From IMG/VR virus record IMGVR_UViG_3300033121_000366: a stretch of DNA of 64,000 nt. One strand, written 5' to 3'. The translations under genes were made by a program, and so were the position numbers. Positions 7,908 through 34,706 of this stretch are shown piece after piece. The stretch's first letter is position 1. Every line of letters starts with the position of its first letter. Source of the stretch: an uncultured virus (IMG/VR IMGVR_UViG_3300033121_000366) (taxonomy: Duplodnaviria > Heunggongvirae > Uroviricota > Caudoviricetes). The notes beneath the pieces are model-generated. The model was not told the origin of the DNA. It searched no databases and saw only the letters and a program-made list of their open reading frames with translations.

Positions 7908-7944
7908 AATATAATCCTTAAATAAATTAAAAAACTACAAGTTG

Positions 7945-8031: not shown

Positions 8032-8036
8032 TATTA

Positions 8037-8225: not shown

Positions 8226-8226
8226 A

Positions 8227-8783: not shown

Positions 8784-8787
8784 ATAT

Positions 8788-9572: not shown

Positions 9573-9604
9573 ATATTTATCCTTTATTTTATAAAATGTA
9601 AATT

Positions 9605-9865: not shown

Positions 9866-10059
9866 TTTATATTATTATCATATAATTCTGAAATTCTGTA
9901 AACTTTATCATTTTTATCAAACCATATTGAGCGACAATTATAAATATTTATATTATCACCATATAAATTTGCATAATGGGTTAATCCCAAATTTTTTGCT
10001 TGTTCTATTGAAATAATTTTAAATAACCTAATGTATAATAGTTTTAATCTTCGTATCAT
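9862..10059 (-). CDS. hypothetical protein
   Basis: Packed ORF. Confidence 0.6.
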   Translation of the reverse strand: MIRRLKLLYIRLFKIISIEQAKNLGLTHYANLYGDNINIYNCRSIWFDKNDKVYRISELYDNNIK

Positions 10060-10313
10060 TATTCATCCTCCAAATAACTTAGAAAATCGCCAGTCTCTTC
10101 TAGTGTATATTCTATACTACGTACCATTACACCTTCTATTGTTTCATCATCTATAAAATTGATAACATGATTAAAAAATACATCTTCGTGTATAATTTTT
10201 GCAATACCAACATCTTCTTTCATAGAATCGGCAATTTCTAATATTGTTTTCTTTTTAATCGTAATGATTATATCTTCATCATTTTGACTAAATTGTATGT
10301 AATATGGTTCCAT
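10059..10313 (-). CDS. hypothetical acidic protein
   Basis: Packed ORF. Confidence 0.6.
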   Translation of the reverse strand: MEPYYIQFSQNDEDIIITIKKKTILEIADSMKEDVGIAKIIHEDVFFNHVINFIDDETIEGVMVRSIEYTLEETGDFLSYLEDE

Positions 10314-10315
10314 AA

Positions 10316-11470: not shown

Positions 11471-12626
11471 TTTTTATTCCTATAAATTCTAAACATTTAT
11501 CAATTTCTTTATTTGGATCATTAATATAATCAGATTCCCATATAACTAATATATCGTATCCATATTTTTTAGCAGTATCTATTTTAACGCGATCTTTATC
11601 CCATATTTCTTTAGCTGTAAGTTTTATAACTGGATGATAAAAATCTTCTTTAAAGTAAGAAGGATTGCAGTGCCAAAAATCTCCATTATATTCTATAATT
11701 TTTTTATTAAATGTAAAATCATATTTATAATGTATACCATTTTTATCAGTTATAAACTTTTCATTTTTACCATATTTAATACTTTCATGTATTTTTATAT
11801 CTATATTTGATAATATATCATTTATAAAAATTTCTGATGATTTAGATACACCATTTGATATACATGTATATTTATTAAATACTTTCTTTTTCCATTCACT
11901 TTGTCTGTTGTTATATTTTTTAGTACCTTCATTTTTACCATATTTTTCTATACATTTTTCTAATGTAAATGTAGTTTGTCTTTCCTTTAACATTTCAATA
12001 GCTTCTGTATTAGAATAACCTTTATCTAACCAATACTGTAATCGTGTTGTAGTTTTTCGTTTATTATAATCTATGAATTTAGATTTATTTTGTATTTCGG
12101 ATACTTTTTTTAAAGCATCTTCTTCAGAATACCCATTATTAATCCAATACTCAACACATCTAATAGATGATTTTTTAAAATAATTTTTTCTTATATCAAA
12201 TGCCTCTTCTTCTGAACAATTATAATTATTTTTTATCCAATCTATACTAGTGATAGTATGATTCATGTTTTTTCTATTAATACCTGTTGTATTTTTAATT
12301 TGGATAGAACTTATATTTTTAATAGCATCTTCTTTTGAAAATCCTCTTTTTAACCAGTATTCTACACAAAATTTGCTACTATTTCTTTTTGATAAAATTA
12401 CATTTTTTTCATACTCATCATATACTATTTTAGGTAATAAAAAACTTAAATATTCTCTATGTTTAATATCATATGAATTCGATTTACAATCATCATTAGA
12501 ACATTTTATGATATTATTAACTTTTTTCTGATTTTTTTCTATTACTAAATCACTACCACATTTACATTTCAAATGTTTTTCATCATACTCAAATCTAAAT
12601 TTTTTAGATATTATGTTATATTTCAT
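11454..12626 (-). CDS. free-standing Vsr-like (EDxHD/Hef-type) homing endonuclease
   Basis: YW...GYS.E.A repeats; YDF..IIEYNGDFWH..W.KD..GY..LVIWESD C-terminal domain. Confidence 0.85.
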   Translation of the reverse strand: MKYNIISKKFRFEYDEKHLKCKCGSDLVIEKNQKKVNNIIKCSNDDCKSNSYDIKHREYLSFLLPKIVYDEYEKNVILSKRNSSKFCVEYWLKRGFSKEDAIKNISSIQIKNTTGINRKNMNHTITSIDWIKNNYNCSEEEAFDIRKNYFKKSSIRCVEYWINNGYSEEDALKKVSEIQNKSKFIDYNKRKTTTRLQYWLDKGYSNTEAIEMLKERQTTFTLEKCIEKYGKNEGTKKYNNRQSEWKKKVFNKYTCISNGVSKSSEIFINDILSNIDIKIHESIKYGKNEKFITDKNGIHYKYDFTFNKKIIEYNGDFWHCNPSYFKEDFYHPVIKLTAKEIWDKDRVKIDTAKKYGYDILVIWESDYINDPNKEIDKCLEFIGIKNEKIC

Positions 12627-12629
12627 ATA

Positions 12630-12657
12630 ATATTTTTATTTTATATATTAAAAATAT
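12630..12657 (-). promoter_or_regulatory. AATATATA promoter-like motif in a hairpin upstream of endonuclease
   Basis: ATATTTTTA/TAAAAATAT inverted repeat 3 nt upstream of ATG. Confidence 0.6.
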
Positions 12658-12676
12658 AGTGTATAATATTATATTT

Positions 12677-12922
12677 TCAGGCAATGTTGGTATCATTAAA
12701 AAATTCTTCAATTTCTATTATTTTTATTTTACCAGTTTCTTTATGTCTTATTTTTATAAGAGTATTACCTAAAATGCACTTACCAATACCAGCTTTTCCA
12801 CAAAACAACATATTCTGCTCCACATTACCATCACCCATAGAATTTCTAACTCTATCCAAAAGGATGATATGTTTTAATGTTGTTGGTCTTAGTTTTTCTG
12901 TTAACTGCTGTTCGAATACCAT
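12677..12922 (-). CDS. gp44: clamp loader gp44 N-terminal fragment fused to 33-aa split-intein N-half
   Basis: EKLRP motif, Walker A GKAGIGK then C-ILGNTLI intein block A. Confidence 0.92.
   Translation of the reverse strand: MVFEQQLTEKLRPTTLKHIILLDRVRNSMGDGNVEQNMLFCGKAGIGKCILGNTLIKIRHKETGKIKIIEIEEFFNDTNIA
12680..12778 (-). mobile_element. split intein N-half (33 aa) of gp44
   Basis: CILGNTLIKI...IEIEEFF directly after Walker A Lys. Confidence 0.9.
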
Positions 12923-12967
12923 TTTTCAATCCAATATAAAATGTAAAATTGCTTAACTAATATAATT

Positions 12968-12996
12968 CTTATACGTTTAAAATTTATTTTTGTTTA
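12968..12996 (-). promoter_or_regulatory. early/middle-type promoter TAAACA-N17-TATAAG
   Basis: Same motif and spacing at four intergenic sites. Confidence 0.65.
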
Positions 12997-13009
12997 AAAT
13001 AAAAATAAA

Positions 13010-13417
13010 TTATTTTGCTACAAAACATAATTCCAAATCAATTAATGGAGAATAGTCTTTTGTAGTATCAATTTCAAGACATTCCCAACCATATAAAGGT
13101 TTACCATTCCAAAATGATTGGAACATATTATCAACAATAACATCAGGTATAAAACCTCTATAAAATATAGCCAAATCTTTATATGTTCCAGTTAATTCAT
13201 CAAATCTATCATTAAAATAATCAAATAATTTATCATTGTACAATCTTTCACCTTCTTTATAATAAAAGTTATATCTATCTATACCCTCTACCATTGGTAT
13301 GGTATCTTTCATCCATTCATAAATTTCGTTTTCATTATTTGCCAATAAAAAACATATAATATTATCTTCTATGCGGTTTTGTATATACCGTCTAACCATT
13401 ATTTTATATAAGTTCAT
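13010..13417 (-). CDS. hypothetical protein
   Basis: Packed ORF. Confidence 0.65.
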   Translation of the reverse strand: MNLYKIMVRRYIQNRIEDNIICFLLANNENEIYEWMKDTIPMVEGIDRYNFYYKEGERLYNDKLFDYFNDRFDELTGTYKDLAIFYRGFIPDVIVDNMFQSFWNGKPLYGWECLEIDTTKDYSPLIDLELCFVAK

Positions 13418-13715
13418 TATATTTATTTAATAGATGTGGATTTTTAGATAGAAATTTTTTATATGTTATAGATTTTAATTTAAACTCATTACATGTTAAA
13501 CAAAAATTATACCAATCAAATATGGAATATTTTTTTACATCATGATGTAAATCTAACATTATATCATTAAAACTAAAATAATAATCGCCGAGCATAATCA
13601 CGCCAGACCAATCATCTACAACCGCAAATTCTATAGAAAGATCATGCTTTCTTGCAAAAAGTTTTACTAATTTTTTGCAATGTTTTTGTATATCTTCTTT
13701 TTTAAATTGTTTCAT
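13404..13715 (-). CDS. hypothetical protein (probable start MKQFKKE)
   Basis: ORF. Confidence 0.6.
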   Translation of the reverse strand: MKQFKKEDIQKHCKKLVKLFARKHDLSIEFAVVDDWSGVIMLGDYYFSFNDIMLDLHHDVKKYSIFDWYNFCLTCNEFKLKSITYKKFLSKNPHLLNKYNELI

Positions 13716-13810
13716 GTTATTTAAATAATAAAAATGCGATAAAAAATCCAACAAACATAGCACAAATAACAATAAATAATATTGTTAGTATTATTTTTTT
13801 AAAATATTCA

Positions 13811-14035
13811 TCAAAATTCATCTTTATCATCCTCTAATTCTTTCAATTTTAAATAAAATTCATAACCACACACAATCTGATTATATATATGTGGTCTTTT
13901 AAAATATTCATGTTGTCTGTATATTTCAGGTATTATATCTTCACTATTCATATCTCCAATTTTATGAATATTTTTTTGAATTTGTTCTATGAGATTCATA
14001 TTTTGTATAATAAATTGTCTTAGTTTATTGTACAT
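13811..14035 (-). CDS. hypothetical protein
   Basis: ORF. Confidence 0.5.
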   Translation of the reverse strand: MYNKLRQFIIQNMNLIEQIQKNIHKIGDMNSEDIIPEIYRQHEYFKRPHIYNQIVCGYEFYLKLKELEDDKDEF

Positions 14036-14086
14036 TTATTGGTTTATCATACCAACTAAGACAATAACCAAGACAGGGTGTCTAAG

Positions 14087-14566
14087 TTAAATAATTAAAT
14101 TAAAAAATTCCATGATATCATATTTACTTATAGCAGACTTTTCCAGCCCTTCTAATTGCATAGACTCCCATTTGTTATACCACGGTGTACCTGGCATATT
14201 AGTGAAAGATACTAGTTCTACAATATCAGTCAACCTGTACGTTTCCCATATTGATTCCAGCAGTTTTATAGTTTGTTCATCCTCATCATCTATAAATTTT
14301 TTATTTGGATCTATAGTTTTGATATAATCTTTAATTACACCGGAACCATATTTCAAAGTATTGTAATATAAATCTGGGAAAACTGGACCATAATTCCATG
14401 CCTGAACATCTTCTGAAATAAGATAAAAGCCATTTGATAATGATAAATGCCAACATTGTGATAGATAAACTAATTTATGTAGTTTATTGGAATGTAATTC
14501 AAATTCGGAGTCTAATGATTTTTTGATAAACCAATTAGATATTTGGAGGGAGGTATAAGGTATCAT
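14087..14566 (-). CDS. Panacea (DUF4065/SocA/GepA) domain protein
   Basis: KLHKLVYLSQ..H, EDVQAWNYGPVFPDLY, GTPW motifs. Confidence 0.88.
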   Translation of the reverse strand: MIPYTSLQISNWFIKKSLDSEFELHSNKLHKLVYLSQCWHLSLSNGFYLISEDVQAWNYGPVFPDLYYNTLKYGSGVIKDYIKTIDPNKKFIDDEDEQTIKLLESIWETYRLTDIVELVSFTNMPGTPWYNKWESMQLEGLEKSAISKYDIMEFFNLII

Positions 14567-14787
14567 TTATCTTTCCTTAGTTCTATTATATCTTCATCAT
14601 CCAATGGTATGATTCGTTTCTCAAATTTGATTAAAAATTTATCATCATTAATTGGTATTAAACCTGATATATATGACTCTTTTATAATAGCATCAGTATA
14701 TAACAATTCTAAATATTTAAATAATGATTTATTATTTATTTCCATATAATAATGTCTACTATCTTTATTAATCTCATATATTAACAT
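14563..14787 (-). CDS. hypothetical protein
   Basis: Packed ORF. Confidence 0.55.
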   Translation of the reverse strand: MLIYEINKDSRHYYMEINNKSLFKYLELLYTDAIIKESYISGLIPINDDKFLIKFEKRIIPLDDEDIIELRKDK

Positions 14788-15107
14788 TTTTTATTCCTAC
14801 TCTTAAATAGTTTTTTTAAAGTTATTATTTCTTGTTTTGTATCAGCTATTAATTTTGTCTTACTTTCAATCAATTGTAGTATATCATTTTTAGAATTCCA
14901 TTCTTGTATGCATCCTTGGACCATACTATATGTTTTTGTTTTATTTTCACAATTTCCACATTTTATTGTAGAAATAAATCCATATTCATCTTCATATTCT
15001 GATATATTTTTTTCTGGTATTTCACTTCCACATTTTACACAATTAGAAATATTATATTTATATTCTACAAATGTGGATGGTATTTGTTGTTTAATGGTAT
15101 ATATCAT
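14781..15107 (-). CDS. Zn-finger protein (Lar-like)
   Basis: CxxCG...CxxC...WN. Confidence 0.6.
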   Translation of the reverse strand: MIYTIKQQIPSTFVEYKYNISNCVKCGSEIPEKNISEYEDEYGFISTIKCGNCENKTKTYSMVQGCIQEWNSKNDILQLIESKTKLIADTKQEIITLKKLFKSRNKKC

Positions 15108-15216
15108 TTTTTAATTAAATATTTGAATATTTTATAGAAAGGAAAGATTATCATGATAACTAAAAAAAGAAAACTGGATATAAAACCAAAGAATGCTATA
15201 ATGATATAAATTATGT

Positions 15217-15669
15217 TCATAATTTTGAATTATCTATTGCCATTTTGATATTAGAATATTTTGGATCACCAGTTACTTCTAATCCACATATTTCTGGTAT
15301 GATAGTAAATTCACCTTTATATTCTACTTCAACAATAGCTATATCATTTCCAAAAAAATCAACTTCAATTATATAATTGGGATATCTATCATCATTAATT
15401 TTATAACGCTCTTTATATACAATCATTTTAGTAGAATTCATCATATCATAACCATCATTATATGGTATTTCATATTCATATTCGATTCTATATGATGGAT
15501 CAATAACATTTTTAAAACATAAATAACAACGTTCATGATTTATTATTCGAATTCTTAAATGTTTATTACCATCAAACATAAGATAACCTTGTTTTATGTA
15601 AGTTGGAATACCTGTAATGATATGTCTGTATTCATCACGTAATAAAAATTTTCTTTCTTTTTCAATCAT
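15217..15669 (-). CDS. CYTH-domain protein
   Basis: EKERKFL, IKQGY, LRIR, EYEYEI, EVE, EVTGDPKYSN. Confidence 0.9.
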   Translation of the reverse strand: MIEKERKFLLRDEYRHIITGIPTYIKQGYLMFDGNKHLRIRIINHERCYLCFKNVIDPSYRIEYEYEIPYNDGYDMMNSTKMIVYKERYKINDDRYPNYIIEVDFFGNDIAIVEVEYKGEFTIIPEICGLEVTGDPKYSNIKMAIDNSKL

Positions 15670-15677
15670 TTTGTTTT

Positions 15678-15959
15678 TTAATAAGTTAGTGCGTAGTAAC
15701 CATCATATGTTTCGTAACCATCATCTCTCAATGATTTTAAAATTTTAGAATTTGGTAGTTTGTGTTCTGTCCATAAATAATGGTATATCCCCTTTTCTTT
15801 GAAAAGTTTGAATGCATAACATGTTACTTGAAAATATCTAAAACCTGTTAGACGTTCTACTTCTCGTTCATACAACCATCTTACTGATTTACCACATTGA
15901 GCAGCAGAATTTGCTTGATTCTCAGTTATCATTACAGAGCCGTGCAATCCGTTTATCAT
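15678..15959 (-). CDS. hypothetical protein
   Basis: Packed ORF. Confidence 0.6.
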   Translation of the reverse strand: MINGLHGSVMITENQANSAAQCGKSVRWLYEREVERLTGFRYFQVTCYAFKLFKEKGIYHYLWTEHKLPNSKILKSLRDDGYETYDGYYALTY

Positions 15960-15961
15960 AT

Positions 15962-16396
15962 TTAATATTGTTTACCGTGTAATTTTTCTCTTGTTTTATT
16001 ATATTGTAATTTAAACATTATGTGTTTGTAAATATCAATATTAAGACCACCACACATATCAAATAATCTAATGAAAGCATCAGATATTTCATCTTCAAAA
16101 GTATCCTTTACATTCTCTTTGAAAAAATCAATATCAAATGTGTAAATAATATTTTGAATATCGTGTTCATCATATTCATCAGTATATTCAATATTCTCAC
16201 AATCGGCAATATCAACTTTACACATTCTTCCTTTTCGATGGGCTTCTATGGCTTCACCTAATTCCGAAACAACTAACATTAACATTTCACCAATATTGCG
16301 GTTGTTATCTTCTGGCCAAAAACCTTTTTCTTTATTTGCTTTATAAATATCATTTGATAATTGGTTAATATTTATTTTTTCTGGATCTGTAAGCAT
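15962..16396 (-). CDS. MazG-like nucleotide pyrophosphohydrolase
   Basis: KGFW, SELGEAIEAHRK, EDEISDAFIRLFD, YNKTR..HGK. Confidence 0.88.
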   Translation of the reverse strand: MLTDPEKININQLSNDIYKANKEKGFWPEDNNRNIGEMLMLVVSELGEAIEAHRKGRMCKVDIADCENIEYTDEYDEHDIQNIIYTFDIDFFKENVKDTFEDEISDAFIRLFDMCGGLNIDIYKHIMFKLQYNKTREKLHGKQY

Positions 16397-16411
16397 TATA
16401 ATTCCCTTGTA

Positions 16412-16822
16412 TTATTTACCTAATTCTAATTTAAGTTTTTCAAATTGTTTAATTTTTCTTTGTAATTTTTCTTCTTCTTTTTTAAGTTTTTCTTTTTTTT
16501 GTTTTTTCTTTAATTCATTAGCTTGTTCTTTTTTTGATTCAATAATATTATTGATATAATCATCAAATTCTTTATCAGTATATGAAAGTTCTTCAAGTGT
16601 TATATCTTGATAATAATATTCTGGTTCATGAAAAGTGTCTTCAACAAATTTTACTCCTATTATATTTTCAAAATTTTTATAATCATCATAAATTATTTTA
16701 GAAAATTTTACATCATATTCTAATTTTTTATTTATTTCTAATAAACGTCTTGCTCTTTTGGCAAAAAATAATTCAAATGCAATTATACCATCTATTGTTT
16801 GTTTTATTCCTGTAGTTTTCAT
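16412..16822 (-). CDS. hypothetical protein
   Basis: ORF, basic coiled-coil tail. Confidence 0.65.
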   Translation of the reverse strand: MKTTGIKQTIDGIIAFELFFAKRARRLLEINKKLEYDVKFSKIIYDDYKNFENIIGVKFVEDTFHEPEYYYQDITLEELSYTDKEFDDYINNIIESKKEQANELKKKQKKEKLKKEEEKLQRKIKQFEKLKLELGK

Positions 16823-16823
16823 A

Positions 16824-17309
16824 TCAATCCCACCACTCTTCTATGTGTTTGTCTAAAATTTTATAAAGTAATCTTCTATCTCTGGATTTCCAATGGTTCT
16901 CCCATTCCATCCATTTTTTAAATTGTTCATCTGTATATGATCTTTTACTTTTAAATGTACCATTAGTTACAATAACATCTAAATGGTTTAAATATTCTGG
17001 GTGGGTGTAATCATCAGCTATCAATCTATCTAATAATTTAATACAAAAATTGATTTGTTTAACATGTTGTTGAGTTGTTGTATGTCTATCATTTATCCTA
17101 AATAACTCGGACATACGTTTCAATTTAAATCTTAACATGATGTCAATATAAGAAAAATCCCAATCTCTATCTCTATATATCAATGGAGCATAAGTTATTA
17201 TGTTTTTTATACCATAAAAAATATCATTTATAAAATATTTAATATTCTTATAATAATACTGTATATTATCAACTATATCGAAAATAATGGAACCGAATAT
17301 TTTCTTCAT
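16824..17309 (-). CDS. conserved phage protein
   Basis: DRDWD...WWD pattern. Confidence 0.7.
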   Translation of the reverse strand: MKKIFGSIIFDIVDNIQYYYKNIKYFINDIFYGIKNIITYAPLIYRDRDWDFSYIDIMLRFKLKRMSELFRINDRHTTTQQHVKQINFCIKLLDRLIADDYTHPEYLNHLDVIVTNGTFKSKRSYTDEQFKKWMEWENHWKSRDRRLLYKILDKHIEEWWD

Positions 17310-17337
17310 TTCATATATTCAAAACGTTAAACAAAAG

Positions 17338-17412
17338 TGGAGCCACTATACAGACTCGAACTGTTGTCGGATGTTTACAAGACATCTGCTCTGCCAATTG
17401 AGCTATAGTGGC
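17338..17412 (-). tRNA. tRNA-Thr(TGT), CCA encoded
   Basis: Cloverleaf; GATGT-CTTGTAA-ACATC. Confidence 0.95.
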
Positions 17413-17417
17413 AAGGG

Positions 17418-17490
17418 AGACCTTAGTAAGATTCGAACTTACATTGCAAGTTTCGTAGACTAGCATTTTCTCCTGTTAAATTATAAGGTC
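17418..17490 (-). tRNA. tRNA-Arg(ACG)
   Basis: GACCTTA/TAAGGTC acceptor; loop CTACGAA. Confidence 0.9.
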
Positions 17491-17496
17491 ATATAG

Positions 17497-17570
17497 TAGC
17501 CACGGCAGGATTCAAACCTGCAACGATCCATTTAGAAGAAGGATGAACTATTCAGTTGTTCTACGTGGCC
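17497..17570 (-). tRNA. tRNA-Arg(TCT)
   Basis: GGCCACG/CGTGGCT; loop CTTCTAA. Confidence 0.88.
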
Positions 17571-17582
17571 ATTAAACTCGTG

Positions 17583-17668
17583 TGTACCTGAAGGGAGTCG
17601 AACCCATACGCCATTTACATAGCAGCAGATTTTAAGTCTGCGATGTCTGCCAATTTCATCACAGGTAC
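17583..17668 (-). tRNA. tRNA-Leu(TAA)
   Basis: GTACCTG/CAGGTAC; GCAGA-CTTAAAA-TCTGC; long V-arm. Confidence 0.93.
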
Positions 17669-17673
17669 ATATA

Positions 17674-18420
17674 TTATATAATTATTCCTAATATTAGAAG
17701 ATCATTTTTTTCTAAAATCTTTATTATTTTATCAGGATTTTGTTCACAAACTTTTCTCATCTTTCGTTTATCATCAACTCTACCATCTAAACTTTTCCAC
17801 CACCAACCTTTTATTTCAATATATTCATTGTTATCTGGCAAATAAAAATCTGGATAATAAGTATGTATATAATCTTTTTCATGTAGTTTATATTTTAAAT
17901 TTATTGTTTTACTTCTTATCCATTTTATAGTATTTTCATTTAAATATTCGGCGTATTTTAATTCATATGTACCTCGAACTTTAACAAAATCATTAATATA
18001 AGGGCAAAAAATCGGATAATATTTAGTTTTCACATATCCATTATTATTTTCACAGGCCTTTTGTGATAATAATTGCTTAGTTTCATTAGAATGTTTTTTA
18101 TTTAAAAATGATGGAATTATTTCTCCAGTTAAATATTTTTCATGCATTAAATTTGCATGTAAATTAACTCTTTCATCTGTATCCTTTGTTAAGCCTTTAT
18201 TCCATTTCATATTTTCTTTTATATTATCTGGTAAATTTTCATATTGAATTTTCTGAGATATCCTTGTACCATTTTCATATGAATTTTTTAAACCTTTACT
18301 ATTTTTATTTTTATTTACTAAACAAGAATTTGGAGATTTAGAACAACAAAATTTACCAGATTTTAATTGGTAATTTGCAACTAATCCACAACCAAATTGA
18401 CATAATTGAATATTTTCCAT
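17674..18420 (-). CDS. free-standing PD-(D/E)xK putative homing endonuclease
   Basis: WNKGLTK, NUMOD3-like KKHSNETK, YYPDF..YIEIKG. Confidence 0.8.
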   Translation of the reverse strand: MENIQLCQFGCGLVANYQLKSGKFCCSKSPNSCLVNKNKNSKGLKNSYENGTRISQKIQYENLPDNIKENMKWNKGLTKDTDERVNLHANLMHEKYLTGEIIPSFLNKKHSNETKQLLSQKACENNNGYVKTKYYPIFCPYINDFVKVRGTYELKYAEYLNENTIKWIRSKTINLKYKLHEKDYIHTYYPDFYLPDNNEYIEIKGWWWKSLDGRVDDKRKMRKVCEQNPDKIIKILEKNDLLILGIII

Positions 18421-18452
18421 ACATTATATTTTTTATTATAATGTATATATTT
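18419..18452 (-). promoter_or_regulatory. AATATATA motif plus hairpin covering endonuclease start
   Basis: ATACATTATA/TATAATGTAT 10-bp stem includes AT of the ATG. Confidence 0.65.
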
Positions 18453-18468
18453 AAAAAATAAAATAGTT

Positions 18469-18504
18469 TTTTTACAAACTAATGCGTCTGCCAATTACAT
18501 TATC
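18469..18504 (-). pseudogene. 5-prime half tRNA remnant (Leu-like D arm)
   Basis: TAATGTAATTGGCAGACGCATTAGTTTGTAAA; no T arm follows. Confidence 0.5.
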
Positions 18505-18841
18505 GAAATTTGGAAAATATTGGATCATTAAACATAGAACCAATATTTTTAATAGTTTCCAATCTTTCATTTCTTTCTTTTAAGATGATTGGACCAATTT
18601 CTTTATATATAAATGATAAAATACCTTCATCAATAAGTTTCTTACCTATTAAAATCGCACATAATATTTTTTCAGAAGATTCTATAGTTTGACTAAAATT
18701 ATATTTTTCATATTTTGGAGCAAATGGTATATCATTTAAATCTTGATATAATGGTATCATTTTATCTTCTTCGAGTTGATCATAAAATGATATCTTCACT
18801 TCTTTATTATCAATGCGTATTGTTTGTAGATATTCTACCAT
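18500..18841 (-). CDS. hypothetical protein
   Basis: ORF between tRNA elements. Confidence 0.6.
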   Translation of the reverse strand: MVEYLQTIRIDNKEVKISFYDQLEEDKMIPLYQDLNDIPFAPKYEKYNFSQTIESSEKILCAILIGKKLIDEGILSFIYKEIGPIILKERNERLETIKNIGSMFNDPIFSKFR

Positions 18842-18857
18842 GTTTTATTAAAAAATG

Positions 18858-18930
18858 TGGGCTTGGTAGGAGTCGAACCTACACTGTATCGTTTCTAAAA
18901 CGATTTTCTCTGCCGTTGGAATACAAACCC
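18858..18930 (-). tRNA. tRNA-Leu(TAG), short variable loop
   Basis: GGGTTTG/CAAGCCC; ATCGT-TTTAGAA-ACGAT. Confidence 0.9.
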
Positions 18931-18937
18931 ATAAATA

Positions 18938-19912
18938 TCATAATTTATTAAAAAATGGATTTAATTCATCCAACATATATTCTTTAACAAATTTCACTGT
19001 TTTTTGAGAACTTATACCTAATAATTTACTCAATTTTAAACCCCAACCAAAAATTGAAAAATCTATATTACTATTTCTAATTATATTTTTACGCTCTTCT
19101 ATTTTTTCTAATCTTTTTCCAATTGCATTTTCACGTTTTATAATTCTATATTTTTCAAGTTTTTCTATTTTTTCCAATCTTTTATTTAATTTAATTAATT
19201 CCTTTTCTTCTTTATCTTTCTTCTTTTTTTCTTCTAATTCTAGATGATGTTTATCATTATATAAATGATATAATTTATCAATTTTATATGTTTCTTTAAC
19301 ATAATTTATATATGGTAAAATTTCATTTGTAGATAAAACCTTTAATGGAAATTTAAATTGTTTTATCTTTTCTTCATCTTTACCATTCATATATCCTTTT
19401 ATTTCAAGATAAGTACCATCTTCTAATATAAAATCTGGATAATATTTACAAACTTCTCCATTATAAATATATTCAAAACCTTCCTTGTTTCTTTCAAACT
19501 TTATATCATGGTCTAGATTATAAATAACAAATGCTAATTCCCAAGTACTATCACACCAGTAATCTTTATACCAACCAAACTTACCTCTACCTACAGTATC
19601 AGAATTTTTTCTTTTCCTATTAGATTGTTTCATCTTTAAAATAGATTCTGATGTATGTTTTCTATTTAAAAATGAACGAGATGGTATTATTTTACCATTT
19701 TTATATTTTTCTTTAATAATCTTAGAATTTTTTAATAAAATATCATTTGTATCTTTTGTTAAACCTTTATTCCAAACAACTCTATTACCATCTTTATAAC
19801 CTCTATTTGGATCATGATTTACACCTTCACCATGATTTCTCCATATATGGCTTTTAATACCATACTTATTATATTCTTTACCACAAAATTCACATTTTAC
19901 CAGTTCTTCCAT
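18938..19912 (-). CDS. free-standing PD-(D/E)xK putative homing endonuclease with C2H2 finger
   Basis: CEFCGK..H...H, WNKGLTK, DSTWELAF, YYPDF..YLEIKG. Confidence 0.8.
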   Translation of the reverse strand: MEELVKCEFCGKEYNKYGIKSHIWRNHGEGVNHDPNRGYKDGNRVVWNKGLTKDTNDILLKNSKIIKEKYKNGKIIPSRSFLNRKHTSESILKMKQSNRKRKNSDTVGRGKFGWYKDYWCDSTWELAFVIYNLDHDIKFERNKEGFEYIYNGEVCKYYPDFILEDGTYLEIKGYMNGKDEEKIKQFKFPLKVLSTNEILPYINYVKETYKIDKLYHLYNDKHHLELEEKKKKDKEEKELIKLNKRLEKIEKLEKYRIIKRENAIGKRLEKIEERKNIIRNSNIDFSIFGWGLKLSKLLGISSQKTVKFVKEYMLDELNPFFNKL

Positions 19913-19944
19913 ATTTTAATATATTTTTTAGTATATATTAAAAT
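19913..19944 (-). promoter_or_regulatory. AATATATA motif in hairpin abutting endonuclease ATG
   Basis: ATTTTAATATAT/ATATATTAAAAT 12-bp stem. Confidence 0.65.
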
Positions 19945-19988
19945 TCGAACCTTTTATTTTAAAAAAGCGTGAACATTACCATTTTTTG

Positions 19989-20061
19989 TCAGTGTAGCAG
20001 GGCTCGAACCTGCATTCTCATGTTCCCAAAACATGCGGAATCCCAATTATCCTATACACTG
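19989..20061 (-). tRNA. tRNA-Pro(TGG)
   Basis: CAGTGTA/TACACTG; CATGT-TTTGGGA-ACATG. Confidence 0.93.
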
Positions 20062-20246
20062 AATATTTTCATATCACCACCAATATCAACTTCTTTTTGG
20101 AATTCACACATCATTTCCTTTAATGATTGTTTGGCTTTTTCTATTCTTTCTGGAGTCATTTCACCCATTCGAATAGTAAATACCATTTTTTTATCATTAT
20201 CATGCACATTATTATATTCGAAAGATTCTGGTAAAACTAAGCACAT
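20052..20246 (-). CDS. mini-protein resembling a portal (gp20) segment
   Basis: By-eye alignment to this window's own portal (see findings). Confidence 0.55.
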   Translation of the reverse strand: MCLVLPESFEYNNVHDNDKKMVFTIRMGEMTPERIEKAKQSLKEMMCEFQKEVDIGGDMKIFSV

Positions 20247-20247
20247 A

Positions 20248-20469
20248 TCATTTTATAAAATTTTCATCATAATTACTTTTAGAACTACAACCAACCATAA
20301 GACCTTCAGTTATTGCATCTAATAAATTTTTATCATGTATCGTTGCTTCACATGAATATGAACCATCCTTATTTGGTATAAGGTTAGTTATTGTATATTT
20401 ATCTGGTTCTAAACTCAATTCTTTTAAATTTAAATTAGATAAATCTATTTGCATTATATAAGGTATCAT
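20248..20469 (-). CDS. mini-protein weakly resembling a prohead protease (gp21) segment
   Basis: AITEGLMVGCSSKS recalls gp21 L..G...GVSSRG. Confidence 0.45.
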   Translation of the reverse strand: MIPYIMQIDLSNLNLKELSLEPDKYTITNLIPNKDGSYSCEATIHDKNLLDAITEGLMVGCSSKSNYDENFIK

Positions 20470-20497
20470 GATAAGTTTGAATGATAAAATAAAATTG

Positions 20498-20569
20498 CTC
20501 CGGTTGATGGATTCAAACCACCGACCAACCCGTTAACAGCGGGGCGCTCTATCACTGAGCTAAACCGGA
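20498..20569 (-). tRNA. tRNA-Asn(GTT)
   Basis: TCCGGTT/AACCGGA; loop CTGTTAA. Confidence 0.93.
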
Positions 20570-20574
20570 ATTTG

Positions 20575-20644
20575 TAGCGACATATAGAATCAAACCATAT
20601 CCTATCACAGCCAAGTGATTGTGCTATCATTACACCATATCGCA
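20575..20644 (-). pseudogene. degenerate tRNA (Gln-like), 6-nt anticodon loop
   Basis: TGGTGTAATGATAGCAC D arm; ATCAC-TTGGCT-GTGAT; weak T arm GGTTTGATTC. Confidence 0.65.
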
Positions 20645-20646
20645 AA

Positions 20647-20714
20647 CTCATATTCGTCAATATGAGGATTTTTTAATATCATGTTCTCTATCCGCGGTAG
20701 TACATGATATTAAA
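20647..20714. other. two tandem hairpins in tRNA spacer
   Basis: CTCATATT/AATATGAG and TTTAATATCATGT/ACATGATATTAAA. Confidence 0.6.
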
Positions 20715-20718
20715 GAAG

Positions 20719-20789
20719 TTGCGGGATCCAGAGTTGAACTGGAAGCTAAGGGGTATGAGCCCATTGTGTTACCATTACACCATCCCGCA
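20719..20789 (-). tRNA. tRNA-Met(CAT), initiator-like
   Basis: TGCGGGA/TCCCGCA; GGG-CTCATAC-CCC three G-C pairs. Confidence 0.88.
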
Positions 20790-20802
20790 ATATAAACTTA
20801 TG

Positions 20803-20876
20803 TGGACCATGAGGGAATCGAACCCGTAACATCTCTGCATTGCAAATGCAGCGTTTTCCCATTAAACTAAAGGCCC
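20803..20876 (-). tRNA. tRNA-Ala(TGC)
   Basis: G3:U70 pair; CTGCA-TTTGCAA-TGCAG. Confidence 0.92.
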
Positions 20877-20886
20877 ATATTTTTAG

Positions 20887-20958
20887 TACAGCATCCGGGG
20901 TTCGAACCCGAACTACATCCGTGAAAGGGATGTGACCTAACCATTAGTCTAATGCTGC
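20887..20958 (-). tRNA. tRNA-Glu(TTC)
   Basis: GCAGCAT/ATGCTGT; CATCC-CTTTCAC-GGATG. Confidence 0.94.
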
Positions 20959-20967
20959 ATTTTTTTG

Positions 20968-21094
20968 ACCGGATGTCAGGATTCGAACCTGAATATAGGG
21001 AATAATAATTTATCATTTACGTACATGATATATCATTATCACATTATATGAAGAATGGCCAATTCAACTTTGACAACCTGTCAAATTCATCCTT
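20968..21094 (-). ncRNA. enlarged tRNA-like RNA 1 (~125 nt)
   Basis: GGATG/CATCC closing stem, TTTGAC/GTCAAA D-like arm, perfect TCAGG-TTCGAAT-CCTGA T arm, no canonical anticodon arm, long insert. Confidence 0.7.
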
Positions 21095-21104
21095 ATACAT
21101 TTTG

Positions 21105-21243
21105 TGCCAGCGTCGGGATTCGAACCACGATTGTACATCTCTTCCTAATTTATAAATATATCATCCGCGCGAATGGGTTATATCTATAAATTATAGTATC
21201 GCAAGGCTTACGGCCCGCTTTAACTCCATGTTAATTCACTAGC
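21105..21243 (-). ncRNA. enlarged tRNA-like RNA 2 (~139 nt)
   Basis: GCTAGTG/CGCTGGC-A acceptor, TTAAC/GTTAA arm, 15-bp AU-rich extra stem, GGTTCGAATCC T loop. Confidence 0.75.
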
Positions 21244-21252
21244 ATATTTTTG

Positions 21253-21333
21253 TGCCGCCCACAGGAATCGAACCTACCATGTACAAGTACTGAAAATTTA
21301 CAGTTTTCTTTAGCACCTTGCTGATCTACTGGC
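21253..21333 (-). tRNA. tRNA-Tyr(GTA), irregular acceptor stem
   Basis: GAAAA-CTGTAAA-TTTTC, V-arm GTAC/GTAC, GGTTCGATTCC. Confidence 0.75.
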
Positions 21334-21347
21334 ATATTTAAAATTTG

Positions 21348-21420
21348 AGCGATATCCGAGATTCGAACTCGGATTTGCGACTTGGAAGGACGCCACTTTT
21401 GCCATTTAAGTTAATATCGC
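21348..21420 (-). tRNA. tRNA-Gly(TCC)
   Basis: GCGATAT/ATATCGC-T; loop CTTCCAA. Confidence 0.94.
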
Positions 21421-21425
21421 ATTTG

Positions 21426-21497
21426 CAAGTAACCAGTGAATCGAACACTGATGGTCGGTTTTGGAGACCGAAATCTTAGCCTTTAGATGAGTTACTT
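21426..21497 (-). tRNA. tRNA-Trp(CCA)
   Basis: AAGTAAC/GTTACTT; TCGGT-CTCCAAA-ACCGA. Confidence 0.93.
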
Positions 21498-21508
21498 GTA
21501 TATTTTTT

Positions 21509-21694
21509 TTACCAATCAGCCAATATTAATTCATATTCATAAAATTCACATTCTTGGAGACCATGGTTATTTAACCATCTACAAACATAAGTAATTTCAG
21601 AACTATATGGTGTTTTAACTTCATTTACTAATAATCTAATCCCGTGATTTGTTACATGATTTACTATATCATGTTTTTTGAATTTAGTTTCCAT
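21509..21694 (-). CDS. small hypothetical protein (YodC/DUF2158-like)
   Basis: KFK..DIV...V.......CRW......F...EL pattern. Confidence 0.55.
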   Translation of the reverse strand: METKFKKHDIVNHVTNHGIRLLVNEVKTPYSSEITYVCRWLNNHGLQECEFYEYELILADW

Positions 21695-28734: not shown

Positions 28735-29217
28735 TTATTTTAAAAATTTTTCAGTTATAACCATAAATTTCATATTTCTTGATTCTGCATACTCCTTTGC
28801 AGCTTTCCATTTTGCAATATTCTGAATATACATTTTCATAGCATAATTATAATTTTTTACTTTATTTAAAGTATGCCTTTTTGCTTCATAAATAGGTGCA
28901 CTAATTTGAGATTCTGGCTTAATCTCAATTAATACACTTTCTAATATACCATTAGAATTTATTATCTTAATATAAAAATCAATAAAATAATTATGAGTCT
29001 TTTCATCAATTGGATTTACATATTTAATACCAACTGGTTCAGAACTCCATTGTATTATTTTATCATTTTTATCACAATAAACCATAAATTTGTATTCGTA
29101 TGAGCTTCTATATATTATAGATGTCACATCGCCTAAATATTTTTCAGGGTATACTGGATTATAATAACCTTGGTAATAATTTTTGTTTGTAGGTAAAACT
29201 CGTTTTATACTATTCAT
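28735..29217 (-). CDS. gp4: head completion nuclease (T4 gp4-like)
   Basis: PEKYLGD..IIYRSSYE, WSSEP, YFIDF, IEIKP, AKWKAA, F.VITE. Confidence 0.9.
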   Translation of the reverse strand: MNSIKRVLPTNKNYYQGYYNPVYPEKYLGDVTSIIYRSSYEYKFMVYCDKNDKIIQWSSEPVGIKYVNPIDEKTHNYFIDFYIKIINSNGILESVLIEIKPESQISAPIYEAKRHTLNKVKNYNYAMKMYIQNIAKWKAAKEYAESRNMKFMVITEKFLK

Positions 29218-30043
29218 TGGTAGTATTAATTTTTATTCTATCTATTATTTTATATCCATAAAAAGTACCAGTTACAAAAAATCTTGTACTACATCCTAAT
29301 AATTCAATAACTTTTTTCTTTGTTAAAATTTCTATAATATCATGTTTTGGTGTTTCTATAATATATTTAGTAGTAGATGGATGCTTAGTACCTTTTAAAC
29401 TTTCACTTATACCTTGCCTGTGTTTATCTGTAAATTTTTTACCAAGCATAGGTTTTCTACCTTTATTTTTATTTCCTATCTTTGTTTTAGCATCATTAGA
29501 ATGTTTTTTACCCAACATATTTTTATTACCTTTCATTTTTTCACTTAATTTCATTTTATATTCTTCTGTATGATGTATTTTTCCGAATAAACTTTTTCCT
29601 ATTTTTAATTTAGTTTCTTCTGTTATAATTTGCAATTTTCTTTTTTCTTTAATTTTAATTACACTTTCTTTTGTATGTTTATGACCTAAAAAAGATTTTT
29701 TACCAGTATTTTTACCTTTATTATTATTTTTTATCTTTAATATGGATTCTTCTGTGTGTTTACATCCAGTAAAAAATGCTTTAGAAGGTTTAGCAATATT
29801 ATATCCTATTTTTCTATCTCTAGAATTGTAAAATTCTACCCAATAGTTTTCTCTTTCAAAAGCTTCTATTCCTTCAGGTACTATTTCTAAAATTTCTTTT
29901 GTAAAATTTTCTATACCATATTTTTTAATAGCTCTTTTGAATATTGTACCTGAACCGGCATATTCTTTTATAGGTCTATCATACATATCTTGACCTATAT
30001 AAATTTTACCATTAACTAGATTGGTTGTTTTATAAATTATCAT
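29210..30043 (-). CDS. GIY-YIG homing endonuclease (Seg-like) with NUMOD3 repeats
   Basis: IIYKTTNLVNGKIYIG, Y.GSG, GYNI; repeated G.KHT.E. Confidence 0.9.
   Translation of the reverse strand: MIIYKTTNLVNGKIYIGQDMYDRPIKEYAGSGTIFKRAIKKYGIENFTKEILEIVPEGIEAFERENYWVEFYNSRDRKIGYNIAKPSKAFFTGCKHTEESILKIKNNNKGKNTGKKSFLGHKHTKESVIKIKEKRKLQIITEETKLKIGKSLFGKIHHTEEYKMKLSEKMKGNKNMLGKKHSNDAKTKIGNKNKGRKPMLGKKFTDKHRQGISESLKGTKHPSTTKYIIETPKHDIIEILTKKKVIELLGCSTRFFVTGTFYGYKIIDRIKINTTNE

Positions 30044-34157: not shown

Positions 34158-34706
<549 letters not shown>

Follow-up and report, generated by a model that had tools for sequence, protein, structure and literature searches.

Two neighbouring minus-strand genes, referred to here as R2 and R1, lie in the tRNA operon of a T4-core megaphage. 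They are oversized and tRNA-shaped. Their surroundings within the window, by which we mean the whole 64,000-nucleotide (64-kb) stretch that was analysed, are laid out by coordinate as follows.

20886..20958, minus strand: flanking canonical tRNA-Glu(UUC), called by ARAGORN and Rfam
20959..20967, minus strand: A-rich spacer between R1 and tRNA-Glu, CAAAAAAAU, read directly
20968..21094, minus strand: R1, oversized tRNA-shaped gene of 127 nt (126 nt plus U at 20968), read directly
21095-21104, minus strand: A-rich spacer between R2 and R1, CAAAAUGUAU, read directly
21105..21243, minus strand: R2, oversized tRNA-shaped gene of 139 nt (138 nt plus discriminator A at 21105), read directly
21244-21252, minus strand: A-rich spacer between the Tyr-like gene and R2, CAAAAAUAU, read directly
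21253..21333, minus strand: Tyr-like gene of 81 nt, by alignment a paralog, with canonical CUGUAAA anticodon loop, D arm with AAGGU pentaloop and short variable hairpin
21347-21420, minus strand: tRNA-Gly, upstream, called by ARAGORN and Rfam
21425-21497, minus strand: tRNA-Trp, upstream, called by ARAGORN and Rfam

The spacers of R1 and R2 (9–10 nt) are similar to those between true tRNAs nearby (Glu to Ala 9 nt, Ala to Met 12 nt), and CCA is encoded neither in the two genes nor in the adjoining tRNAs. Matches to a promoter of their own occur at chance level and no terminator of their own was found. Open reading frames over R1 and R2 are all at most 49 aa and lack support; with nothing above that length, a small-protein gene was dropped as a candidate. 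When the three elements were searched by BLAST in the window and in all loci, nothing but short chance matches came back, and a dispersed repeat or mobile mini-element was likewise rejected. Another irregular tRNA of the cluster, with a 6-nt anticodon loop UUGGCU, was noticed at 20575-20644.

R2 can be divided into the following parts.

21237..21243, minus strand: acceptor 5' strand GCUAGUG, 7/7 pairs (two G-U) with CGCUGGC at 21112-21106
21220..21234, minus strand: D-like arm UUAAC-AUGGA-GUUAA, 5-bp stem, pentaloop with GG
21201..21218, minus strand: anticodon-position hairpin GCGGGC-CGUAA-GCC(U)UGC; alternatively a 5-bp stem with the 8-nt loop CCGUAAGC
21133..21199, minus strand: giant arm of 67 nt at the variable-arm position, with helix UAC/GUA at its base, a 15-bp AU stem, an internal loop and the cap CAUUC-GCGC-GGAUG
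21113..21130, minus strand: T arm UCG(U)GG-UUCGAAU-CCCGA, 5 bp, one bulged U

Positions 8-9 are occupied by the linker AA, so R2 has no U8. Folded as a five-way cloverleaf, R2 has an energy of -36.4 kcal/mol, the minimum (-37.6) being 1.2 kcal/mol lower, while its arm at -14.7 kcal/mol falls in the best 2% of 21,311 same-strand 67-nt windows. The corresponding parts of R1 are these.

21088..21094, minus strand: acceptor 5' strand AAGGAUG, of which only GGAUG pairs, with CAUCC (20975-20971), giving 5 pairs
21069..21085, minus strand: D-like arm UUUGAC-AGGUU-GUCAAA, 6-bp stem, GG pentaloop
21053..21065, minus strand: anticodon-position hairpin GAAU-UGGCC-AUUC; alternatively a 7-nt loop UUGGCCA on a weak stem of 3 standard pairs
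20993..21049, minus strand: giant arm of 57 nt, with AUAUA/UAUAU base, 9-bp stem, A.A mismatch, 6-bp stem and 8-nt loop
20976..20992, minus strand: T arm UCAGG-UUCGAAU-CCUGA, perfect pairing

The two terminal acceptor positions of R1 form A.G mismatches with GG at 20970-20969. For this gene the five-way cloverleaf is itself the minimum-energy fold (-30.2 kcal/mol), and the arm, at -11.4 kcal/mol, belongs to the best 9% when ranked against same-strand 67-nt windows. All hairpins quoted for both RNAs in the initial annotation are present on the minus strand. Its closing acceptor stems hold for R2, but R1 has only the 5 pairs and the terminal mismatches; its intact T arms hold for R1, whereas the T stem of R2 requires the bulged U. 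The insert of ~60–70 nt that it described is AU-rich and fits R2, while that of R1 is shorter, and both are arms at the variable-arm position.

Reading and folding confirm that both RNAs are tRNA-shaped with one common non-canonical plan: an acceptor stem, an AA linker, a long D stem with GG pentaloop and a small hairpin, followed in the 3' part by an AU-rich arm of 57-67 nt at the variable-arm position and the T-arm motif GGUUCGAAUCC. The arrangement exceeds chance: exact copies of GGTTCGAATCC occur only twice in the 64-kb window, both in R1/R2 and on the tRNA strand, and with at most one mismatch there are 12 matches versus 0.16 expected. When the two genes are aligned, 90.6% of 64 cells are paired, against 36–47% with the partners slid, and 8 of the 32 pairs are changed on both sides. 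It should be noted that whole-molecule fold z-scores are ordinary (-1.15 for R2, -1.87 for R1) and that the similarity of the two giant arms is at chance, with 634 of 1,000 dinucleotide shuffles scoring at least as high as the real pair. Since the arms are no more alike than shuffles, the four 'compensated' arm pairs rest on an unreliable alignment. AT-rich imperfect inverted repeats are also common in the window (107 pairs of at least 13 nt). The earlier argument that sequences differ while structure is the same, hence selection, is therefore weak, because any two tRNAs show that pattern and the arms are at shuffle level.

As canonical tRNAs we accepted matches to RF00005 at or above the curated cut-off of 29 bits, or ARAGORN calls. 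R1 and R2 gave no match to RF00005, whether at the gathering score or with E relaxed to 10, and no ARAGORN call at the default threshold, with or without introns, in line with the initial annotation, which had proposed these runs and saw no canonical anticodon loop in either RNA. Neither has a 5-bp anticodon stem carrying a 7-nt loop with U33: at this position R2 shows CGUAA, of 5 nt, or CCGUAAGC, of 8 nt and with C at position 33, and R1 shows UGGCC (5 nt) or UUGGCCA. The combination of a 7-bp acceptor, a 5-bp T arm with UUCRANY loop and a D-loop GG is found in R2, given the T-stem bulge, and partly (5/7) in R1. One may ask whether the two are odd but working decoders, R2 accepting tyrosine and reading a four-base or unusual codon with its 8-nt loop, and R1 carrying a GGC anticodon in the loop UUGGCCA. 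R2 does have A73, G1-C72, GUA in the loop and a long variable arm, which we take to be bacterial TyrRS identity elements, and the cluster has other irregular tRNAs, e.g. the one with loop UUGGCU at 20575-20644. Nevertheless, we regard decoding as very improbable: C stands at the U33 site of R2; R1 has a pyrimidine at 37, an anticodon-position stem of 3-4 pairs and two terminal acceptor mismatches; and no tRNA finder accepts either gene.

A second reading within the tRNA world treats the insert as intron-like and removed after transcription to leave a working tRNA, as proposed for the Lak 'enigmatic introns', and the related megaphages G002 and LR756500.1 do carry such genes, as Lak phages are reported to. 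For R1 and R2 we consider it very unlikely. Single deletions of 0-94 nt gave no ARAGORN-callable variant (0/7,098 for R2, 0/5,970 for R1), nor did a deletion scan of the Tyr-like gene (0/1,954), while positive controls were called in 1,017/7,944 and 216/1,541 variants and the oversized genes of LR756500.1 yielded from 5 to 623 calls each. The insert sits at the variable-arm position, outside the anticodon loop, and the anticodon-position hairpin would stay abnormal after any excision. ARAGORN in intron mode was silent here, as stated above, and the sole RNA-library contig entering the R1 arm is unspliced. Removal of the insert to give an ordinary tRNA, the outcome that the initial annotation had named as refuting its proposal, is thus unsupported.

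Other known RNA classes fit no better. The tRNA-Sec model RF01852 has no match to R1 or R2, whose acceptor/T lengths are 7/5 with a bulge (R2) and 5/5 (R1), not the 8/5, 8/4 or 9/3 of tRNA-Sec and allo-tRNA. The analogy with Y RNAs drawn earlier fails: RF02553 (YrlA) finds nothing in 20400-21600 at E up to 10, and in R1/R2 the D arm precedes the T arm, whereas YrlA is defined by a T-arm module 5' of the D-arm module in the Ro-binding stem. Of the 96 ORFs of at least 90 aa, 54 were scanned, and no TROVE family turned up in them. ARAGORN reports no tmRNA in the window, and Rfam has no tmRNA match.

The neighbour upstream of R2 is informative about origin. Taken as an ordinary tRNA-Tyr in the initial annotation, the gene at 21333-21253 yields no ARAGORN call and no match to the Rfam tRNA model. 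Its acceptor (GCCAGUA/GGGCGGC) has mismatches at 3 of 7 positions, and its sole Rfam match is to tRNA-Sec (RF01852), at 17.2 bits versus a cut-off of 47. Aligned over their 5' halves, R2 and this gene score 13, compared with -8.6 ± 5.9 for shuffles, of which 3 in 1,000 are as high; the same alignment of R2 with eight other tRNAs gives -15 to +5. In the alignment, the CUGUAAA loop of the Tyr-like gene falls opposite the anticodon-position hairpin of R2. On these alignments R2 is a paralog of its Tyr-like neighbour. As part of our main reading, we see an even chance that R2, R1 and the Tyr-like gene form one local gene family, with a long D stem bearing a GG pentaloop, no U8 and an AAAG junction as its hallmarks; the same style of D arm is also printed for the Lak megaphage tRNA-Tyr (PMC6784885, Table S6). 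The 5' acceptor strand of the Tyr-like gene can pair at 6 of 7 positions with the 3' strand of R2. A nested or permuted tRNA was nevertheless rejected because R2's own 5' strand pairs 7/7 and the inner strands are left unpaired; the fit between the two genes is explained by common ancestry.

If these genes are tandem tRNA-Tyr copies, they could also be decaying duplicates without function, their arms being AT-rich palindromic expansions of the variable loop that have no role. This is the main rival to our reading, and we consider it possible, though on the unlikely side. Every copy is defective in some way: the Tyr-like gene by its 3 acceptor mismatches, R2 by a T-stem bulge and an abnormal loop, R1 by two terminal mismatches and a weak anticodon-position stem. 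The ordinary fold z-scores, the chance-level arm similarity and the abundance of inverted repeats in the window point the same way. On the other hand, the stems of R2 are nearly perfect (7/7, 5/5 and 15+5 bp), the D arm, T arm and 20-bp arm of R1 are intact, and both genes keep the exact T-arm motif GGUUCGAAUCC, the D-loop GG and tRNA-like spacers. The R2 arm is more stably folded than 98% of same-strand windows and the R1 arm than 91%, and dead DNA would usually be deleted from phage genomes.

Natural variants speak on both sides of this question. In the R2 arm of one variant, C>U at 21133 forms an extra pair at the base, and U>G at 21155 breaks a G-U pair in the 15-bp stem, as decay would allow. 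The Tyr-like gene is the fastest to vary, one contig listing 6 changes in its 81 nt, which again suits decay; yet its variant turns two T-stem wobble pairs into Watson-Crick pairs. A 177-nt contig from a metatranscriptome library equals 20866-21042 with zero differences and runs unspliced from inside the R1 arm through tRNA-Glu. It gives a weak hint of transcription: the runs compared consist of assembled contigs, and RNA libraries may contain DNA. Among RNA-library contigs no joint across the arms was seen, this single contig being the one that enters the R1 arm. Stretches that the RNA runs leave uncovered, and short T-arm pieces from other organisms, are uninformative.

The lack of detected homologs also counts on the side of decay. 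Neither megablast nor blastn retrieved any match to the region from 50,697 phage records. Five pattern scans covered viral and metagenome contigs. Only two near-identical IMG/VR contigs were matched by an exact 22-mer from the T arm and acceptor of R2, by a degenerate consensus for the D arm and by a frame pattern; these contigs have zero differences within R1 or R2 and hence carry no information on divergence. On metagenome contigs the frame pattern had 6 matches, all ordinary tRNAs after a chance motif, and the pattern GCCGTAAGCC...GGTTCGAATCC picked up 4 loci that are unrelated, in addition to T4-like rnaC and contigs of the window itself. Portal-based synteny led to 9 related loci in which the tRNA cluster is missing, while a tRNA-Glu 22-mer led to 9 other phage tRNA clusters, none with an R1/R2-like element; the tRNA-Tyr genes of those clusters are ordinary, unlike the Tyr-like gene of the window. 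An R1/R2 covariance model found no relative in the two closest complete megaphages. Covarying homologs, which the initial annotation had set as a check, were thus not found beyond the near-identical contigs by BLAST, pattern scans or the covariance model on two megaphages. A loose descriptor scan for oversized frames gave 61 matches, mostly spanning adjacent tRNAs, and serves as a lead only.

The closest known parallel is in T4, where RNA C (species 1 RNA, rnaC) and RNA D (rnaD), 139 and 119 nt long, stand in tandem inside the tRNA cluster, which also has a homing-endonuclease gene. T4 rnaC is processed by RNase P. Like R1/R2 it has an acceptor-type stem (7 bp in rnaC), a T arm (here CCGGG-UUCGAAU-CCCGG) and extra long hairpins replacing the decoding arm. 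The T4 analogy made earlier was apt in that rnaC itself is a covariation-supported tRNA-like RNA in tRNA arrays: 22 of 44 pairs are compensated in a 7-member alignment, it sits among ordinary tRNAs in other Tevenvirinae, and it was found in 748 phage records, whereas R1/R2 are confined to one lineage. In architecture, rnaC folds around a four-way junction and lacks a D-type arm; R1/R2 have a five-way junction that includes a D arm and a small hairpin at the anticodon position. Both R1 and R2 possess a T arm, which is missing from rnaD. As given in PMC3014915, PMC9697503 and PMC12685909, the function of rnaC is still unknown.

Could R1 and R2 belong to the rnaC (species 1 RNA) family by descent? 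The setting is the same, both lying in the tRNA array of a phage whose core genes are of T4 type, as are the size and the acceptor stem with T arm, and the 10-mer GCCGUAAGCC is common to R2 and T4 rnaC. An rnaC model matches R1 weakly (20.0 bits, E 0.009, where T4 itself scores 156 bits), and the R1/R2 model matches T4 rnaC weakly (25.3 bits, E 0.003). Ordinary tRNAs, however, score similarly, reaching 11-14 bits when searched with the rnaC model and as much as 23.6 bits when searched with that of R1/R2. There is no match of the rnaC model to R2 at E up to 10, and blocks present in 7/7 rnaC members (CGAGGA after the acceptor, the hairpin loop AGCGUCAACU, UAAC before the T arm) are absent from R1/R2. 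The shared 10-mer is missing from 4 of the 7 aligned members; as the family does not conserve it, we judge the match coincidental. Together with the difference between four-way and five-way architecture, this makes common descent highly improbable. That R1/R2 are functional analogs of RNA C, a part of our main reading, is about evenly balanced.

Megaphages offer a second comparison. Lak phages are related to the phage of the window (portal 36-37% identical), and their tRNAs, including tRNA-Tyr(GTA), are described as having 'enigmatic' introns of 23-141 nt (Devoto et al. 2019, PMC6784885). According to that paper they are, like R1/R2, oversized genes missed by standard bacterial tRNA finders, and the D arm of Lak tRNA-Tyr(GTA) in its Table S6 has a 5-bp stem and a pentaloop AAGGU, the loop of the window's Tyr-like gene. 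The Lak inserts are predicted there at positions 37-41 of a normal anticodon loop and a canonical tRNA remains, whereas in R1/R2 the extra arm is at the variable-arm position and no excision yields a canonical tRNA. Oversized tRNA-like genes of 105-149 nt in G002 and LR756500.1 have perfect acceptor stems and T arms, lie in tRNA arrays and carry AU-rich inserts. In G002 a tRNA-like gene of 111 nt, which has a pentaloop hairpin plus one additional hairpin, directly follows tRNA-Tyr, and two tRNA-Ile(GAU) genes have anticodon-loop inserts of 73 and 33 nt; in LR756500.1 four oversized tRNA genes have a common module of ~60 nt whose deletion restores ARAGORN calls. These genes have no sequence similarity to R1/R2, and most become callable after one deletion, whereas R1/R2 do not. 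A Tyr(GUA)-type gene is enlarged, or stands beside an enlarged tRNA-like gene, in four portal-related lineages: the window, G002, LR756500.1 and Lak.

An extra helix between anticodon arm and T arm is shared with class II tRNAs (bacterial Tyr, Leu, Ser), allo-tRNA and tRNA-Sec; the last two are also described with a long D stem, a small loop and no U8, and some allo-tRNAs are thought to be unused in translation (Mukai et al. 2016, PMC5389517). The variable arms of R1/R2 are 57-67 nt long versus about 13-25 nt in class II and V-arm tRNAs, and R1/R2 differ from all of these in that the 7-nt anticodon loop is missing.

Taken as a whole, we give about even weight to the reading that R1 and R2 are processed, non-decoding, tRNA-shaped stable RNAs derived from tRNA genes. 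With it, and held at the same middling level, goes the proposal that they keep what tRNA-processing enzymes read: an acceptor stacked on the T arm, an elbow of D-loop GG and T-loop UUCGAAU, and A-rich spacers. They would be co-transcribed with the tRNAs, released by RNase P and 3'-end enzymes, and accumulate as stable tRNA-shaped RNAs. The tRNA frame would provide processing and stability, and the giant arm or the small hairpin might be the working part that binds a protein or RNA. It is also possible, as speculation, that R1/R2 are tRNA-Tyr look-alikes which occupy tRNA-directed host enzymes; a nuclease example depleting tRNA-Tyr is described in retron-Eco7 PtuAB (PMC11555353). More specifically, they might be an undescribed functional class of tRNA-Tyr-derived giant-arm frames, processed and non-decoding, which mislead tRNA-directed host factors or deliver the arm as a scaffolded RNA module. 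This we consider improbable; if it were true, the Tyr(GUA)-type enlargement in four megaphage lineages would be no coincidence.

T4 RNA C and RNA D have been without an assigned function for some fifty years and the Lak tRNA 'introns' are still enigmatic. The R1/R2 locus is a clean case of oversized tRNA-shaped genes that are not explicable as interrupted tRNAs; it offers a plausible origin in a phage tRNA-Tyr family and fits into a construct of ~400 bp. Annotation is affected as well, because standard tRNA and Rfam scans find none of these genes. Should R1 and R2 prove to be processed, stable RNAs, a second class of product besides decoders would come from phage tRNA arrays, which would bear on how phages handle tRNA-targeting defences.

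Two oversized tRNA-shaped elements, R2 (139 nt) and R1 (127 nt), may well represent processed, non-decoding RNAs that come from a phage tRNA-Tyr family and are functional analogs of T4 RNA C (species 1 RNA, gene rnaC), a reading that we hold with moderate confidence. The feature itself is real, and with an 81-nt Tyr-like paralog the two elements make up the three unusual elements between tRNA-Gly and tRNA-Glu:

21333-21253, minus strand: Tyr-like gene, first of the three
21243-21105, minus strand: R2, the second
21094-20968, minus strand: R1, the third, before tRNA-Glu

The spacers are, in order, 9 nt (CAAAAAUAU), 10 nt (CAAAAUGUAU) and 9 nt (CAAAAAAAU), similar to those between true tRNAs. 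All hairpins quoted in the initial annotation were found on the minus-strand reading, but the T stem of R2, described there as intact, carries a bulged U, and the acceptor stem of R1 has 5 pairs only, with two terminal A.G mismatches. The flanking gene that had been taken for tRNA-Tyr is called neither by ARAGORN nor by the Rfam tRNA model and is mismatched at 3 of 7 acceptor positions; its anticodon loop is canonical (CUGUAAA). Common to the three elements are a long D stem, a GG pentaloop (AAGGU, AUGGA, AGGUU), the lack of U8 and an AAAG junction. In R1 and R2 an extra AU-rich arm (67 nt in R2, 57 nt in R1) occupies the variable-arm position, with the anticodon-position hairpin on one side and the T arm on the other. 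The five-way cloverleaf is the minimum-energy structure of R1 and lies 1.2 kcal/mol above the minimum-energy fold of R2, with ordinary whole-molecule fold z-scores (-1.15 for R2 and -1.87 for R1). Exact copies of GGTTCGAATCC occur twice in the 64-kb window, in R1 and R2 only, while at up to one mismatch there are 12 matches versus 0.16 expected.

R1 and R2 are neither ordinary nor simply interrupted tRNAs. They are not reported by ARAGORN, by default or in intron mode (10-120 nt), nor by Rfam at E up to 10, and the calls obtained only at a lowered ARAGORN threshold are noise-like. Each internal segment of 0-94 nt was removed in silico and ARAGORN was run on every variant: none was called as a tRNA for R2 (0 of 7,098), R1 (0 of 5,970) or the Tyr-like gene (0 of 1,954), and the controls were positive, with 1,017 of 7,944 for an intron-bearing tRNA-Ile of the related megaphage G002 and 216 of 1,541 for tRNA-Glu of the window. 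Contigs from RNA libraries bear on the same point. One of 177 nt, from a metatranscriptome library, is identical to 20866-21042: it starts within the R1 arm, covers the T arm, the spacer and tRNA-Glu, and ends in tRNA-Ala. Another RNA library has a contig that matches tRNA-Gly and tRNA-Trp. Since RNA libraries may contain DNA, co-transcription is hinted at only weakly; no joints across an arm were seen in these contigs. Excision yielding a working tRNA finds its parallel in the insert-bearing tRNAs of related phages, and for R1 and R2 we regard it as quite improbable.

The link to the tRNA-Tyr family comes from the 5' halves. Those of R2 and the Tyr-like gene align with a score of 13 versus -8.6 +/- 5.9 for dinucleotide shuffles (3 of 1,000 as high), and the R2 half scores -15 to +5 against eight other tRNAs of the phage. 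R1 and R2 are only marginally similar in the 5' frame (-1 versus -12.3 +/- 5.6; 57 of 1,000 shuffles as high), a score that exceeds that of R1 with any other tRNA, and their long arms are similar at shuffle level (634 of 1,000 score at least as high). A D arm of the same kind, with loop AAGGU, is present in Lak A1 tRNA-Tyr(GTA) in Table S6 of PMC6784885. The R2 loop CCGUAAG(C) matches CUGUAAA of the Tyr-like gene in position, and the anticodon-position hairpin is abnormal in both elements (loop CGUAA or CCGUAAGC in R2, UGGCC or UUGGCCA in R1); that they are odd decoders using such loops is very improbable.

Decay of duplicated tRNA genes is a serious, if rather unlikely, rival, against which the initial annotation had set the kept structure as a sign of selection. 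In a MAFFT alignment of R1 and R2 with a structure that we specified, 90.6% of 64 cells are paired versus 36-47% with partners slid, and in 8 of 32 pairs both partners are changed (3 acceptor, 1 D stem, 4 arm). This shows that both molecules are tRNA-shaped, not compensation after duplication, because any two tRNAs differ so, the structure comes from the very sequences that were aligned and the alignment of the arms cannot be relied on. Both arms are more stably folded than 98% (R2) and 91% (R1) of 21,311 same-strand 67-nt windows, although imperfect AT-rich inverted repeats are common in the window. Three near-identical IMG/VR contigs show no differences inside R1 or R2. R2 is changed at two positions in a DNA contig of a different sample: one change adds a pair at the arm base, the other turns a G-U of the 15-bp stem into G.G. 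In another contig six changes are listed in the Tyr-like gene, two of which make T-stem wobbles Watson-Crick and one of which breaks an anticodon-stem pair.

The window belongs to a large phage whose core genes are of the T4 type (among them portal, head-closure protein, DNA-end-protector protein, clamp-loader, UvsX/RecA-like, DnaB-like, gp46/47-like and family B polymerase with intein). The portal shares 55% identity with its counterpart in G002 (a 482-kb IMG/VR phage), 48% with that in LR756500.1 (a 462-kb uncultured phage) and 36-37% with those of Lak megaphages. Near-identical DNA (at least half of the sampled words) is carried by 14 run records, which come from 7 studies when the possible source study is set aside. 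The tRNA genes, 13 by ARAGORN and 12 by Rfam at gathering score, all lie on the minus strand from 7944 to 21497, and two homing-endonuclease-like ORFs lie within the cluster, as segB does between the tRNA genes of T4. Other features of the window are:

14087-14566, minus strand: SocA/Panacea antitoxin-domain protein
17674-18420 and 18938-19912, minus strand: endonuclease-like ORFs between tRNA genes (PHROG endonuclease families; Phage_endo_I below cut-off)
18857-18930, minus strand: tRNA-Leu(UAG) of just 74 nt, class I size, without long variable arm
20575-20644, minus strand: tRNA-like gene whose anticodon loop has 6 nt (37.9 bits with the Rfam tRNA model)
28735-29217 and 29210-30043: further homing-type genes (TnsA-like and NUMOD3)
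33030-34112, plus strand: GDP-mannose 4,6-dehydratase
34167-34706, plus strand: Rv2179c-like 3'-5' exoribonuclease
59183-59896, minus strand: family B DNA polymerase fragment with intein-splicing domain

A short tRNA-Leu(UAG) of 75-76 nt also occurs in six of eight other phage tRNA clusters (L049, L050, L052, L055, L057, L059) retrieved via a common tRNA-Glu 22-mer. The gene at 20575-20644 is missed by ARAGORN at default and given as 'tRNA-??? (gg)' at lowered threshold; its loop, UUGGCU, is similar to UUGGCCA of R1.

Oversized tRNA genes are a known, recurrent trait of these phages, as the cases of G002, LR756500.1 and Lak indicate. Among 62 tRNA-model matches, G002 has tRNAs of class I identity whose variable arms are long (His 90 nt, Asn 92 and 88, Lys 92, Met 86, Gln 85, Glu 87, Trp 84), and these 84-92-nt forms (loci L028-L032) often stand beside a normal-sized copy of the same anticodon. 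It also carries:

L028 4329-4474, plus strand: tRNA-Ile(GAU) with a 73-nt AU-rich anticodon-loop insert
L029 2776-2881, minus strand: tRNA-Ile(GAU) with a 33-nt AU-rich anticodon-loop insert
L028 3897-3977 and 4738-4827: D-armless Ile- and Arg-like genes
L030 1017-1127, plus strand: 111-nt tRNA-like gene with perfect acceptor stem, canonical D and T arms and encoded ACCA

The insert-bearing Ile(GAU) genes adjoin a canonical copy; group I introns would be longer than these inserts. In the 111-nt gene, which the Rfam tRNA model does not report, the anticodon arm is replaced by ~58 nt with two small hairpins; it lies directly after a class II tRNA-Tyr and before a 70-nt Tyr(GUA)-like gene. In LR756500.1 there are four such oversized genes, of 149, 137, 134 and 141 nt (one at 86244-86380, minus strand, in record coordinates; one in L063 and two in L068, minus strand), which share a conserved ~60-nt module, AUAACUUU...ACUYAAAGUUAUUACAGAAAAA, near the acceptor/D-arm junction. 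Removal of 56-76 nt at the module brings ARAGORN calls back, e.g. Tyr(GUA) and Ser(UGA). The module, whose place within the tRNA is unusual, may be mobile or intron-like. Devoto et al. 2019 (PMC6784885) described "enigmatic introns" in tRNAs of Lak phages, one of them in tRNA-Tyr. R1 and R2 are a variant of the oversized tRNA gene that is not reducible to a tRNA.

Sequence and pattern searches found no relatives of R1 and R2 outside the near-identical contigs. Their covariance model, which gives the two sequences it was built from 149.6 and 133.9 bits, has no match in G002 at E up to 1; in LR756500.1 its matches are limited to ordinary tRNAs and a single oversized gene that is unrelated. The analogy with T4 drawn initially proved close, since rnaC is itself tRNA-shaped: an alignment of seven members (T4 L015 2909-3047, minus strand, and six Tevenvirinae loci, L043-L048) gives a well-supported four-way structure, made up of an acceptor stem that often contains two U.U, one long arm, another hairpin whose loop is invariant, and the T arm; compensation is seen at 22 of 44 pairs. 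The tRNA cluster of T4 ends with rnaD (119 nt) and rnaC (139 nt) as a tandem pair; rnaC has 748 matches in phage records and is flanked by ordinary tRNAs in Karamvirus and Kagamiyamavirus. No Rfam family matched anything like rnaC in the window, and OQ599310.1 (GenBank) labels rnaC as tRNA-Lys. Descent of R1 and R2 from rnaC seems scarcely probable. With the rnaC model, R1 scores 20.0 bits (E 0.009) and ordinary tRNAs 11-14 bits, and R2 has no match; with the R1/R2 model, T4 rnaC reaches 25.3 bits and ordinary tRNAs reach up to 23.6. The blocks invariant in the rnaC family are missing from both elements, and these comparisons do not demonstrate homology. A 10-mer common to R2 and T4 rnaC was rejected as a sign of homology, as it is not conserved within the rnaC family.

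According to passages of PMC3014915, PMC9697503 and PMC12685909, what RNA C and RNA D do is unknown, and in the open-access literature searched no giant variable-arm tRNA mimics of phages were found beyond these two RNAs and the Lak introns. Roles as decoys or ligands, as the initial annotation proposed, are speculative. If R1 and R2 are non-decoding analogs of RNA C, their tRNA frame would be there for processing and for stability, with activity residing in the giant arm.
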